Of a stretch of 21,965 bases of DNA, positions 5,111-21,965 are shown piece after piece (position 1 is the stretch's first letter; every line of letters starts with the position of its first letter). The notes beneath the pieces are model-generated. The model was not told where the DNA came from. It made no database searches and saw only the letters and a list, made by a program, of their open reading frames with translations. The stretch spans positions 4,676 through 26,640 of the forward strand of contig NW_006536941.1 of the NCBI RefSeq assembly GCF_000186305.1, in the 5' to 3' direction. The stretch is from Python bivittatus. Taxonomy: Eukaryota. Position numbers and translations under genes: made by a program.

Positions 5111-6110
5111 TTAAAATAAACATGATTCTACTAACAAAAGATGCAGCTGCTTTAAGGAAGGGCAGACCAAGGCTTCATTTGTGCCGAGAAATGTCTCTGT
5201 ATTCAAAACATAGTCTGCCTCTGGACTGGCAACAGCTGTGACACAATTGGTTCTGTCACTGCCTTCCTCATTTCTTGGCCACATACAGTTTCCAAAGCTT
5301 TTATCCCCAGTTAGGGTCAAAGACAGGGGGAGAATGACAGGCATAATGGTCTTCATAGATCCTATGTAGCTATTTCTCCAGTTGCATCTAACCATGACAT
5401 TGCCTTCATCTCATCCTCAATCCATCTGTGAGACAGCCTGAAATTGTCCTTCGCCGAAAGATGGCTAGATCATGGCTAGACGCACTCTCAGGGGAGCACA
5501 GGTTTAGTGTACCTTCCTTCCTGTAGACAGTAAGGAAGATGACCAGCATATCTCCATCAAGGTCATCTTTCTTACTCTTTAAACTTCCCAAGTCTACTGA
5601 AGAGCTCTTCAGTAGGCTTGCAGAGTTGGAAAGTAGATTCACCCTCTCCACACAAAGGCTCCTGTAAGCACCTGGGGTCATAGCAGCCAGACTCAATATC
5701 TGGCTTGGAACTAGAATTTCCTTAAGAATAAAAGGATTACCGAGGAAAAAGTCCCTACTTCTAAATAATGCTGTTGGATGGAAATAATCTAGCTGTTGGA
5801 ACAAAAATCATTCAACTGAGAGCAGCCCAGTGCTGGAGCCATATCTGATCTCAGCCAATCTTCTTTGTTTATATTTCCAGATGACCAAACTCTGTTTATA
5901 ATTTACAGCTTCAGCTGACTTATTCCTCTTAACCCAATCTTTTACTATCATCTTTGGCTCTAAGTTCATCCCACATCTGCTTTTTCCTGCTTGTGCTGTA
6001 AGACAGGAGATGGAGAATTCTTCAATAGGTAGAGCAACATTCACAATGAGTTGGTGTTCATTGTGATGCATAAAGTACCTTATGCATGCTGCCTTGCAAG
6101 GATGTCCCAC
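5111..6110 (-). pseudogene. decayed ~1 kb coding relic (three consecutive ORFs in three frames), unclassified
   Basis: Minus ORFs 5808..6110 (100 aa), 5406..5804 (132 aa) and 5111..5395 (94 aa) abut end to end, each shifted by one frame. About 330 codons have only two stops, in DNA where stops should occur every ~20 codons. No motif I can assign. Confidence 0.45.
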
Positions 6111-6277
6111 TATGTCCAGTGGGGTTTACCCTTTTGAATGTGGTTTTATGACTGCATTCTTAACTAGACAAGTATCCATAAAAAGAAGGTAGGCTCCTAA
6201 GTGGTCCACTTTCAAATATTGATTATGTCAAGAACATGAAGCAGGTTTATAGTTTGAGCAATCAATGCCTAACTCAC

Positions 6278-8338: not shown

Positions 8339-8428
8339 ATAACTAAACTAAACTAAACTAAACTAAACTAAACTAAACTAAACTAAACTAAACTAAACTA
8401 AACTAAACTAAACTAAACTAAACCAAAC
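8339..8428. repeat. (AAACT)n microsatellite, ~17 perfect units
   Basis: aactaaactaaacta... runs perfectly from 8341 to 8422. Confidence 0.95.
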
Positions 8429-13548: not shown

Positions 13549-14082
13549 GTGGTTTTGCTGTTTCCAGACGCTATTCCAACACCAACTGCAACAGAAGCTA
13601 ACAAGCCTTCCCCCCCTCACAAGACCTTGAAAAAGCAAGGCAGTGGGAGTCAATTTTCTCCTCAACCAGACAGTATGACCAATCCAGCTGAAGCAGACCT
13701 TACCTGTGCCTTTGGCTCCCTGCCCAGGAAGGAACAAGATAACACTATTTTTAAACTAGAAAATCTTAAGAAAACCTTACTGGACTCCATTGCTATTGCA
13801 GAACCCCTCATTGATTTTGTGTCTCCAACTACTGACCCTAATTACTATCAGCTGGTGGATATAGATCTGGAGGAAAATCGATACCCAAATAACAACTGCT
13901 CTAGCCTTTATGAGATGAATGGGGTCTTCCCTGGAGAGCACCAGTCTATGCAAATAACTGAGGAGGCAGTCTTCCCAAGACCACAGACAGATGCTGACCA
14001 ACGCCTAGTGGATACTAGATCTCCTCCACATGATGGGTTGTCTCCACATTCTGCGGATTCCCCTCACCATATTCCATAAAAA
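13549..14082 (+). CDS. intact 176-codon ORF of the LINE fragment (ORF1-like, unclassified)
   Basis: No stop across 534 nt in AT-rich DNA. It begins at GTG with a TAG stop directly upstream; the first ATG is at codon 44. Pro/Ser-rich ends. No similarity to L1 ORF1p that I can recognise. Confidence 0.4.
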
Positions 14083-14139
14083 TCAGACATGAACACATCT
14101 GACTCCCCTGATCCTTCATCTGTTGAGAAATGACTGAAT

Positions 14140-14412
14140 ATGTCTCACCATGACCCTCCCTCACCTAGTGTTTCTACCCCACCCCTTACAGGTGTTGTTA
14201 AACATTCAGCAATTCACATATTATTGTGGAATCTTGCTGGATGGAAAAACAAACTACATGAGTGTTCTGATTTTCTGTCTAACCATGATTTGATTGCAGT
14301 CCAAGAGACCTGGTTAACTGCTGATGATGAGCAGATCTCAATCCCTGGCTTTAAATCCTGGTTCACTCCAGCTTGGAAATTAAAAGGAGGTTTGGCCATT
14401 TTGATTACTTAA
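14140..14412 (+). pseudogene. truncated LINE ORF2 (AP-endonuclease N-terminus only)
   Basis: Motifs LLWNLAGW, DLIAVQETWL and GGLAILI, then a stop. No reverse-transcriptase motifs downstream in any frame. Confidence 0.6.
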
Positions 14413-19499: not shown

Positions 19500-19631
19500 C
19501 TCTCCTATTATATGCTTTCCTTTAATGAACGCTTCAAATCCACATACAGCAGCTGTGTCATCCAAAGGAAAGACATATTTGGCCTCAATGGGATCCCTTG
19601 TTTCATTTTCATAGGTCTGAAACACCACAAC
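19500..19631 (-). CDS. PARP4: PARP4 exon B: VIT domain core
   Basis: Acceptor ttatatttcag|GTT, donor GGAGAG|gtaagctg. Encodes VVVFQTYENETRDPIEAKYVFPLDDTAAVCGFEAFIKGKHIIGE, the canonical VIT motif (EA.Y.FPL...AV..F.A.I.GK.I.G) seen in ITIH, VWA5A and PARP4. Confidence 0.85.
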
Positions 19632-19941
19632 CTGAAATATAATGCAATATATTTTATGCATTAGTTTGGACAAACACAGTTGTTTTCACCAGAAAGATTT
19701 TTATGGGTGGTGCTTCCATCCTAAGATTAACATTTTCAACATGACTGAACACAGTCCAAAGAAAGAGAATACAGAAAAATAGTAAGTCAACTAGTTGTGG
19801 TAGAAATGTATATCTCAGAATATGGCTGGATATTATACGAAGGCTAATTCCCTGAATTTTCTTCTCCATTCCTGCTCTTGGCTCAAAAGATAACAGTTCT
19901 GATTTTACACTAAATTAAAAACATGGTAGTAAAGGATGCTT

Positions 19942-20006
19942 GAAGAATTAAAAATACAATTTTTGAAGAATTAAAAATACATTTTTGATAAATTAAAAAT
20001 ACCATT
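19942..20006. repeat. 22-bp minisatellite, 3 units
   Basis: gaagaattaaaaatacaattttt / gaagaattaaaaatacattttt / gataaattaaaaataccatt. Confidence 0.85.
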
Positions 20007-20030
20007 AATCAGGGATGTGTTTACAGTTGT

Positions 20031-20395
20031 TTTTTAATAATATTTTTATTAAAGTTTAAAAATGCAAAGATAAAAAACTAATACAAACTAAGAAAAATAT
20101 AAAAAGCAAAAAGAAAGAATGAAAAGGGAAAAGGGAAAAGGAAAAAAAAGGGAGGAGGAAAAAGAAAAAAACATACACACATACACACACACATATATAC
20201 ACACACATCAGCATATGTTTCTTTATATATTCTTTTTTCTTTATATATTTTTCTTTTTCCTCCTCCCCCTTTTTTTCTTCTTTTCCCTTTGCACTTTTTA
20301 TTCTTTCTTTTTTTCTTTTTATATTTCTCTTAGTTTTAGTTTTTTATCTCTGTATTTTAAAACTTTAATAAAAAATATTATTAAAAAAGGGATAT
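20031..20395. repeat. large inverted repeat (~145 bp arms) flanking a CA/TA microsatellite; the purine-rich arm mirrors the pyrimidine-rich arm
   Basis: The reverse complement of 20031-20171 aligns at about 85-90% with 20241-20395 (shared blocks ctttttcctcctccc and tcttagtttt...ttttttatct...ttttaaactttaataaaaaatattatt). The spacer 20172-20240 is acatacacacatacacacacacatatatacacacaca. Confidence 0.8.
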
Positions 20396-20459
20396 GCTTA
20401 CACTTATTCAACAAAATAGTCAGCATTCCTAGGAAAAACAAAAAACAAAAAGAATTTTA

Positions 20460-20584
20460 CCTCTGCTACAAAGTCTATTATTCTTCCTTTGATTCGAATA
20501 TCTTTAAGAGGAATTGGATTTCCAGCTCTGTCCATGAGACCAGCAGAAATATCATTCAATAGATCACGGCTTGGTATTGAATAA
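20460..20584 (-). CDS. PARP4: PARP4 exon A': linker and start of VIT domain
   Basis: Acceptor ctctcatttag|AT, donor GCAGAG|gtaaaattc. Encodes (D)YSIPSRDLLNDISAGLMDRAGNPIPLKDIRIKGRIIDFVAE. The phase fits exon A (G+AT=D) and exon B. IPLKDIRIKGRIIDFVAE matches the first strand of a VIT domain. Confidence 0.7.
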
Positions 20585-21297
20585 TCTAAATGAGAGAAGT
20601 CAAAGGTAAGCCCAAACTGTAATCAGAGTCTAAGATTAGTGGTCCCTTTACACACCCTGCTCCCTGCCGTTCCTGGACATTTCATCTCTTAGTTTTTCTT
20701 ACCTTGACAGCAGCCTCCTACAACTGTACTTTCTCCTCCCCTAGTACCCCACCTCCCAATTCCCTTTGCCCTCCTTTCTCCCAAGGACTTCATTGTTTAA
20801 ATGTGTGTGTGATGCTAAATGTGGGTGCTTTCTGGACTGTGGGGTGTGAATCTTGGGGTGCTCTGAGGGTAGCAACATGGAGATTGGAAGCCACAAATAG
20901 CCTACAGACAGCTCACTGCTGCTCTAGTGGGAAAACTCCCTCTGTAAATAGGAAAAAAAAAACATATTCAGAGAAAAGCAAATTTAGAGGCTTCCTATAT
21001 TCCAATTAATTCTACGTAACTACTTTCCCTATTTTAAAAAATGTAGAAGAAATAAGGTTTCTTCTACAGGTTTTAGAGATGGGCTCAGAGAATATACTCA
21101 TGATTTTATTTGTGAGGGGGACAAGAGTTAAAATGGATATTTATCATTCAAAGGTCATATCTGGCATATTTCTAGAGTACCAAGCTAGTGTAGATGTATT
21201 TTTATCAAAAGTCTCATAAATAAAAAAATCAGTTTCAGAAAATACCAAGGAAACAGACTCATTGTTGCTGTTTGTAATTTCAAATATTATGTCTCAC

Positions 21298-21454
21298 CTT
21301 TAGGCTGGTCATGATGCTCAAGAGAAAGCATCTGGTCTTCTAATTCAGTCTGAATTATTGGCTGGAATTCTTTTACTTTGTCATTAACACAAGAAAATTG
21401 AACCACATATTTGATCTTCATCTGACTGGTTCTGTACACTACAAATTCGTCATC
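21298..21454 (-). CDS. PARP4: PARP4 exon A: C-terminal end of the PARP catalytic domain
   Basis: Minus-strand acceptor ccaataag|GAT, donor AAAG|gtgagac. Encodes DDEFVVYRTSQMKIKYVVQFSCVNDKVKEFQPIIQTELEDQMLSLEHHDQPK plus 1 nt (phase 1 end). The DEFVVYRTSQMKIKYVVQF segment matches the conserved C-terminal strand of PARP catalytic domains (PARP1 [21 protein letters not shown]). Confidence 0.75.
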
Positions 21455-21840
21455 CTTATTGGAGGAAAGGAAACAGAACATATATTTTAAGAACCTCACT
21501 AGAGCAAAAAGATAGATACATGAGCTGATCCTAAAGGCTTATTCACAACTGCAAAAAAGTCAAGTTAGTTAGGGAAAAGTTCAGAATATTGAAATATTAC
21601 ACCAACTTAGCAAACCGTTGCTTTTCTTATGAATAGGACTTTGGTGAACTGCTTCCAAACAAGCAGTTAATTGAAAGTCCACTGGCCACACAGGACCTTC
21701 AACAAGGCCCATCCCTTCCCCAAGGCTTATTCTCTCATAGGGGTCTGGTTAGAAATAGCACGTGTTAGAGACAGAGGTTAATTTATAATTGTATAATTTA
21801 TAACTGCTGTAAAGAAGATTGGAAGCCATTTGTTTATATC

Positions 21841-21965
21841 TTTCTTTGTATCTTTTTCTTTTTTCTATGTTTCTTCTACCTTTTTTCTTTCTGCACTTTT
21901 AGCTTTTTCTTTTTGTTCTCCTTTCTCTTTCTTTATTTTTTGTTCTGTTTTAGTTTGTATTAGTT
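21841..21965. repeat. third, partial copy of the pyrimidine-rich arm of the 20031-20395 inverted repeat (cut off by the window end)
   Basis: ctttctgcacttttagctttttctttttgttctcctttctctttctttattttttgttctgttttagtttgtattagtt matches the right arm and the reverse complement of the left arm (gcacttttt..., cttagtttgtattagtt). Confidence 0.5.

Follow-up and report, generated by a model that had tools for sequence, protein, structure and literature searches.

How a near spacer-less palindrome of 359 bp (20030–20388; 78% A+T) came to lie in an intron is the question that this locus raises. We analysed it within the whole stretch of DNA at hand, 21,965 nt in length (hereafter the window), for which an initial annotation had described a large inverted repeat at this place and had suggested that it might mark a foldback transposon. 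The most likely explanation is an ordinary mobile-element insertion that is specific to this lineage. The palindrome belongs to a known kind of feature, the footprint of a mobile element, and this element was probably of the retroelement type and not a foldback DNA transposon.

The window is vertebrate DNA (G+C 37%; CpG observed/expected 0.13), and exons on its minus strand encode VIT, VWA and PARP-catalytic segments whose best matches are PARP4 proteins, with 78% identity to that of the coral snake Micrurus carvalhoi and 51% to that of the tuatara. Judged by these exon matches, the host gene is PARP4, on the minus strand, of a snake-like squamate. The palindrome is contained in the 829-nt intron between exon A′, in which the VIT domain starts (20461–20585, minus strand; 5′ splice site GT at 20459–20460), and exon B, also of the VIT domain (19500–19631, minus strand). 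The initial annotation had placed it in this intron, and the exon coordinates agree. The 5′ splice site of exon A′ is 72 nt from the end of the palindrome and 54–55 nt from the end of the direct repeat that borders it on the right. Elsewhere on the gene strand, three consecutive long open frames of 99, 133 and 105 codons (5111–6125, minus strand), the upper two in one frame with a single stop between them, all lack a Pfam match and may represent either a large, rapidly evolving exon region of PARP4 or a decayed element. In another vertebrate, represented by an ENA contig of 40.6 kb (P0186), the open reading frame that runs from the upstream intron into PARP4 exon B likewise consists mostly of a phenylalanine/serine/leucine-rich stretch, which implies a long pyrimidine-rich tract in the same intron there and may be a coincidence. 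The window also holds a near-perfect (AACTA)n microsatellite (8341–8428; 17.6 copies, 98% matches).

The inverted repeat claimed at this place was confirmed by a gapped alignment of the core arms, 20030–20172 against the reverse complement of 20243–20388, which gave 127 matches, 9 mismatches (5 transitions and 4 transversions) and 9 gap positions that fall into 5 indel events. The arms are identical at 93% of the aligned bases (~136), or at 88% when gaps are counted, with a K2P distance of 0.069; their divergence amounts to 6.6% plus the 5 indels. The alignment score was 104, against a mean of 32.1 (sd 4.3, maximum 49) in 300 dinucleotide-preserving shuffles (z = 16.7), and a blastn comparison of the window with itself returned the arm pair at E = 1e-88.

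Masking of simple repeats had been proposed as a check on this similarity. The dustmasker program masked exactly 20030–20388, classing the entire element as low complexity, and BLAST with DUST switched on reported no arm match. DUST masking is unusable as a test of arm similarity, because the whole palindrome falls inside the mask, and we therefore used controls based on shuffling and on Tandem Repeats Finder (TRF) in its place. The outer 76 nt of the arm, which are not homopurine, scored 57 (shuffle maximum 33), and the purine tract by itself scored 46 (shuffle maximum 34). In the sole stretch of the arm that has no TRF match, 25 of 29 positions are paired, and its score of 21 compares with a maximum of 14 among 2000 AT-matched segments of the window. 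The similarity of the arms stays above all of these controls and exceeds what their shared composition would give.

The left arm (20030–20208, minus strand) is purine-rich on the plus strand and has its A-rich end outward, where it appears as T6 at 20030–20035; the right arm (20213–20388, plus strand) is pyrimidine-rich on the plus strand. Their lengths are nearly equal, at 179 and 176 nt. Beyond the well-aligned cores (20030–20172 and 20243–20388), weaker complementarity runs on inward to ~20208/20213, within about 4 nt of the centre, and the unrelated 70-bp spacer of the initial annotation was not borne out; nor were its ends at 20031 and 20395, the true ends being 20030 and 20388. The centre of symmetry is a junction at 20209–20217, composed of CAGC and then the self-complementary hexamer CATATG (20212–20217). 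A (CA)n/(TA)n tract, which had been described as a central microsatellite, is indeed present (20171–20208) but is confined to the left arm, where it occupies the inner 37 nt and aligns with ...AAAGAATATATAAAGAAACAT of the right arm; this alignment suggests that the repeat expanded only once the palindrome existed. The pairing of a purine run with a pyrimidine run stood as described: an uninterrupted homopurine run of 51 nt (20121–20171, plus strand), which includes a perfect 20-nt mirror repeat at 20121–20140, has as its partner a homopyrimidine run of 43 nt (20248–20290).

The outer ends of the two arms are alike. The right arm terminates in ...CTTTAATAAAAAATATTATTAAAAAA, that is, AATAAA and then A6 (20383–20388), and the outward end of each arm can be written ...CTTTAATAAA(A)ATATTATTAAAAAA, with AATAAA followed by an A-run that adjoins the flanking repeat. 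In both arms the AATAAA sits 13 nt before the A6, and the A-run has the same length, only 6 nt.

A search for a target-site duplication at the ends, another check that had been proposed, revealed a 17-nt direct repeat that abuts both ends of the palindrome. Its left copy (20012–20029, plus strand) is GGGATGTGTTTACAGTT (20012–20028) plus G, and its right copy (20389–20406, plus strand) is GGGATATGCTTACACTT (20389–20405) plus A. The copies agree at 14 of 17 positions, a level reached at a frequency of 6e-5 among random 17-mer pairs drawn from the window, and at 14 of 18 once the additional base is included; the 8–10 nt directly at the two palindrome ends are by themselves not repeats of each other. 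The complementarity of the arms stops exactly at T6/A6, and the repeats enclose both arms together, not one arm. By its position and length, the direct repeat looks like a target-site duplication of 17–18 bp, and the three differences between its copies are compatible with an old event. One of the inferred nick sites, CAGTT/A, resembles the TT/A of L1 type, whereas the other, CCC(T)/GA, does not.

To compare the locus with its orthologues, we used exons A′ and B in a protein search, which identified relatives among whole-genome squamate contigs. Four of these, from related snake samples (L012–L015), are 80–83% identical to the window on both sides of the palindrome, and in all four the segment corresponding to 19995–20440 of the window (446 nt) is replaced by 12–16 nt; the intron measures 403 nt in L012 versus 829 nt in the window. 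None of the four carries a single arm. The relatives, of which L014 comes from run SRR32478114 (assigned in a paper to the viper Macrovipera lebetinus), form two groups, L012/L013 and L014/L015, that are ~94% identical within and ~87% between, and both groups are ~81% identical to the window, a divergence of ~19%. The palindrome is thus missing from two lineages, neither of which includes the window species. In a more distant squamate (L016), the intron of 237 nt could not be aligned and gave no sign of the palindrome.

At the empty sites the junction is not altogether clean, in that the window also has an extra unit of a 23-bp minisatellite and ~23 nt at 20407–20429. The latter, approximately TTCAACAAAATAGTCAGCATTC (plus strand), adjoin the right direct repeat and have no counterpart in L012–L015. 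The minisatellite (19940–20007, plus strand; 3 units of TTGAAGAATTAAAAATACAATTT) lies directly to the left of the insertion site and is context, not part of the insertion; with ~2.4 units in L012–L015, its copy number differs between species. Under one alignment the relatives have one diverged copy of the 17-mer (...TTGAGACACTT...), and under an alternative they have none.

We interpret the palindrome as the product of a transposition-type insertion because it has sharp edges, is flanked by a duplication of 17–18 bp and is absent at the orthologous sites. The 17-nt direct repeat and the empty sites support the idea, put forward in the initial annotation, that the palindrome marks a mobile element. 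More specifically, we would give about even weight to the proposal that one insertion event brought in two ~180-nt copies of a single AT-rich (78%), low-complexity unit, placed head to head with their A-rich 3′ ends outward. The orientation follows from the arms themselves, since each ends outward in AATAAA and an A-run. Extension of both 3′ ends at a staggered break, each from the 3′ end of a template, would be expected to leave such an arrangement, and a staggered break of retroelement type, with target-primed reverse transcription (TPRT), is the better fit because the duplication is 17–18 bp long.

In the course of events that we propose, an element-encoded endonuclease would nick the target with a stagger of 17–18 nt. 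Reverse transcription would then extend both exposed 3′ ends, starting in each case at the 3′ end of a short template of one kind; alternatively, one copy would be primed on the other. The nascent strands would pair via the self-complementary CATATG at the centre, each being completed on the other, and fill-in of the stagger would generate the flanking duplication. The central CATATG would allow either this pairing of two nascent strands or a snap-back. After the insertion, the arms would have diverged to the extent now observed, and the (CA)n/(TA)n microsatellite would have grown in the inner left arm. Two independent primings on poly(A) would not give an equal A6 on both sides, and for this reason the A-run would have been templated, or one arm copied from the other. 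The equal tails and near-equal arms are likewise better explained by a short template with defined ends or by the copying of one arm from the other. An architecture of this sort is routine in Penelope-like elements, and the mechanism would also represent LINE twin priming taken to its limit, with the second primer on the tail and not inside the template.

In L1 twin priming, two oppositely primed cDNAs are joined by microcomplementarity, sometimes with an internal duplication, and L1 inserts with a poly(A) tail at both ends have been documented (10.1101/2024.08.27.596794). The resected ends of L1-induced breaks can also self-anneal, giving inverted duplications and small hairpins with 2-bp microhomology (10.1101/2024.12.14.628481). 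The insertion described here is like a LINE-1 product of TPRT in that its duplication falls within 7–20 bp and directly flanks the insert, the orthologous site is empty, and the A-rich end with its upstream AATAAA adjoins the duplication. It is like a product of twin priming in having two opposed cDNA-like segments joined by microcomplementarity; however, the inverted segment in the classical case is an upstream part of the RNA, whereas here both arms are the same 180 nt, tail included. It also departs from LINE-1 in its tail, which is only A6 and equal in both arms, and in having only one inferred nick site that is TT/A-like.

Penelope-like elements (PLEs) are common in squamates. Their 5′ end is often joined by a 5′-truncated copy in inverted orientation, the junction being palindromic and duplications flanking the insert (PMC8557442; PMC3846280), and the junction palindromes, which occur together with such duplications, are attributed to self-priming (PMC8557442; PMC8969392; PMC3846280). 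The locus shares with them the head-to-head inverted copies of the 3′ part of an element, a short palindrome at the inverted junction (here CATATG) and a duplication outside both arms, an architecture that is not exclusive to PLEs, as well as an insertion site next to simple repeats (PMC8557442; PMC3846280). It differs from them in its duplication of 17–18 bp, as against 8–10 bp in the rotifer cases, and in having no clear tail of 30–40 bp. No coding sequence for a reverse transcriptase or GIY-YIG domain is present, as each arm holds only ~180 nt. A hammerhead ribozyme motif was not found either, and the arms may be too 5′-truncated to hold one; in an Rfam search of 19800–21965 with E values up to 10, in which the cmscan filters can miss weak matches, no hammerhead was among the matches listed. 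The likeness of the palindrome to PLEs is one of architecture, and they serve as a putative comparator.

Further searches were made for a family to which the unit could be assigned. Rfam returned nothing for the whole window at gathering thresholds, and the matches listed by the relaxed search of 19800–21965 were only sub-threshold generic hairpin matches to plant miRNA families. ARAGORN detected no tRNA-like SINE head, and HMMER found no match for the longest open frame of the arm among 1.84 billion representatives; the insert holds no coding sequence, only low-complexity non-coding sequence. When metagenome contigs were scanned for exact occurrences of a 21-base arm motif, 11 matches were obtained, all of them chance matches to the seed only. 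Ten open reading frames of the window had no exact counterpart in a collection of 15 billion proteins. With an nhmmer profile of the arm, only the two arms themselves were recovered from the window and all of the snake loci. On the plus strand of the window, 13549–14412 is a fragment of the 5′ region of a non-LTR retrotransposon, and it breaks off abruptly at ~14415. Its 176-aa open reading frame has no Pfam match; beyond stop codons, the frame continues into the beginning of an apurinic-type endonuclease domain, a match (Exo_endo_phos, E = 2e-4) that falls short of the curated cut-off.

A possible third copy of the arm unit, older, single and non-palindromic, lies at 21829–21965 (plus strand), where it is cut by the end of the window. 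It has an exact 16-mer, TTAGTTTGTATTAGTT, in common with the left arm, is pyrimidine-rich and resembles the right arm, with a colinear score of 50–51 against shuffle maxima of 42–46, and coincides with a dustmasker block (21829–21958) that has a sharp start at 21829. No inverted partner lies on its left, and blastn of 21640–21835, the segment to the left of it, found no other copy. It was also unreported by nhmmer with bias correction. On these resemblances, the assignment is suggestive only. In a contig from a related snake (L019), the 82% identity to the window extends up to ~21633–21676 and similarity is lost after that; the window from ~21676 onward (21676–21828 together with 21829–21965) may be another lineage-specific insertion.

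The palindrome might instead be a MITE or foldback element, in other words a non-autonomous DNA transposon of the cut-and-paste type, made of two long terminal inverted repeats and inserted as a unit by a transposase. The structure fits this perfectly, as the 359 bp consist almost wholly of two inverted arms that reach to the centre and have sharp ends, with a direct repeat on both flanks and empty orthologous sites, and identical outer ends and equal arm lengths would be natural if the palindrome itself were mobile. Cut-and-paste DNA transposons, however, produce fixed duplications of ~2–11 bp, and the 17–18 bp observed here lie outside this range and point to a staggered break of the retroelement type. 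In addition, the termini of the palindrome (TTTTTTAATAAT...) are not known to match the terminal motif of any DNA transposon superfamily, and the only other candidate copy, at 21829–21965, is non-palindromic, with no inverted partner on its left. We consider this origin unlikely, and the foldback transposon of the initial annotation is not supported.

A still slightly less likely account has two steps, in which a single ~180-nt unit inserted first, or was present beforehand, and was later duplicated in place, in inverted orientation, without element-encoded machinery. The second step could have been a fold-back of a resected double-strand-break end or a template switch in replication. Self-annealing of 3′ overhangs at L1-induced and other breaks is documented and gives inverted duplications (10.1101/2024.12.14.628481), and a fold-back would come more readily with a self-complementary CATATG at the centre. 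This account, however, requires the second arm to have stopped exactly at the end of the unit and to have rejoined exactly at the inner edge of the left repeat, and the complementarity does end precisely at T6/A6, with the repeats flanking the pair and not one arm. Moreover, no relative with a single arm was found.

The single insertion event of two opposed copies, which we prefer, could also be the expression of something more regular. The ~180-nt unit would then be a complete, very short retroposon that is copied from both sides of the staggered break, with routine 'retro-foldback' insertions bearing 17-bp duplications in snakes. There are hints of defined ends, namely the arm lengths of 179 and 176 nt and the start of the third-copy block at 21829, which corresponds to the centre of the palindrome. 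We regard this extension as improbable. If it were true, it would mean either double tail-priming outside Penelope-like elements or a new hairpin-shaped family of non-autonomous retroposons.

The time of the insertion can be approached through the arms, whose divergence (K2P 0.069) is about one third of that between the window and the relatives (~19%), an estimate that gene conversion between the arms could bias. On this comparison, the palindrome looks younger than the split between the window species and the relatives, and a gain in the window lineage is favoured over a loss because the arms have diverged less than the window has from the relatives. Because the window species lies outside the group formed by the snakes found, parsimony by itself cannot fix the polarity, which rests on arm divergence. 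The converse, an ancestral presence of the palindrome in snakes followed by its deletion in the lineage of the four relatives, would be in keeping with the proneness of long palindromes to deletion and with the empty sites, which also lack some flanking nucleotides. The low divergence of the arms speaks against such a loss, unless gene conversion kept them alike, as does the 237-nt intron of L016, in which the palindrome was not seen. We hold an ancestral origin to be very improbable, and it concerns the timing, leaving the nature of the object unchanged.

That no real feature exists here, and that low-complexity purine and pyrimidine tracts are alike by chance or the assembly contains a palindromic artefact, is already refuted, in spite of the DUST results, by the z of 16.7 against dinucleotide shuffles, by the colinear identity of 93% over ~136 aligned bases, the outer 76 non-homopurine nt included, by the pairing of the TRF-free segment at 25 of 29 positions and, for the artefact, which would be near-perfect, by the 9 substitutions, 5 indels, arm-specific microsatellite and diverged flanking duplication. 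Assembly artefact was thus ruled out by the divergence of the arms. Two other sources of hairpins were considered and dropped: parvovirus-type terminal hairpins are GC-rich and come without a duplication, and Helitrons have neither terminal inverted repeats nor a duplication.

We also evaluated the folding potential of the palindrome. The gene-sense RNA has a predicted fold of −154 kcal/mol (z = −20.7), with the loop of the predicted hairpin falling at the junction 20209–20217, and each DNA strand has a predicted fold of ~−101 kcal/mol (z = −16.9). These predictions support the capacity for a hairpin or cruciform that the initial annotation had proposed. Its argument for a triplex conflated an inverted repeat with mirror symmetry; formation of a triplex is possible in principle, given the perfect 20-nt mirror repeat inside the 51-nt homopurine run. 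To call the palindrome a fragile site is speculation, and an actively unstable perfect palindrome is argued against by the divergence of the arms (6.6% and 5 indels) and by the asymmetric centre. The palindromic AT-rich repeats (PATRRs) of human chromosomes 11, 17 and 22 are near spacer-less palindromes of a few hundred bp that are capable of forming a cruciform. The present palindrome is like them in being AT-rich (78%), near spacer-less, intronic and lineage-specific, with a predicted cruciform. It is unlike them in that its arms are only 88–93% identical and its centre is made asymmetric by the arm-specific microsatellite, that the flanking target-site duplication points to a transposition-like origin, and that this one sequence offers no evidence of instability or rearrangement.

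Long hairpins in pre-mRNA typically serve as substrates for editing or for the production of small RNAs. The insertion doubles the length of the intron and, by the predicted folds, would place a hairpin of ~360 nt in the pre-mRNA, 72 nt downstream of the 5′ splice site; a hairpin so near the splice donor might be a target of editing or dicing. Since the other snakes examined lack the element, there is no indication of a conserved or selected function; the palindrome shows no sign of function, is wholly of low complexity and has no RNA family match. The insertion is probably neutral.

Taken together, the locus provides a clean example of a head-to-head inverted insertion that has a long target-site duplication around it and can be compared with empty orthologous sites in other snakes, and its significance is modest. 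The palindrome is a lineage-specific marker in an intron of PARP4, and insertions of this kind help to show the use of both ends of a staggered break in the integration of retroelements.
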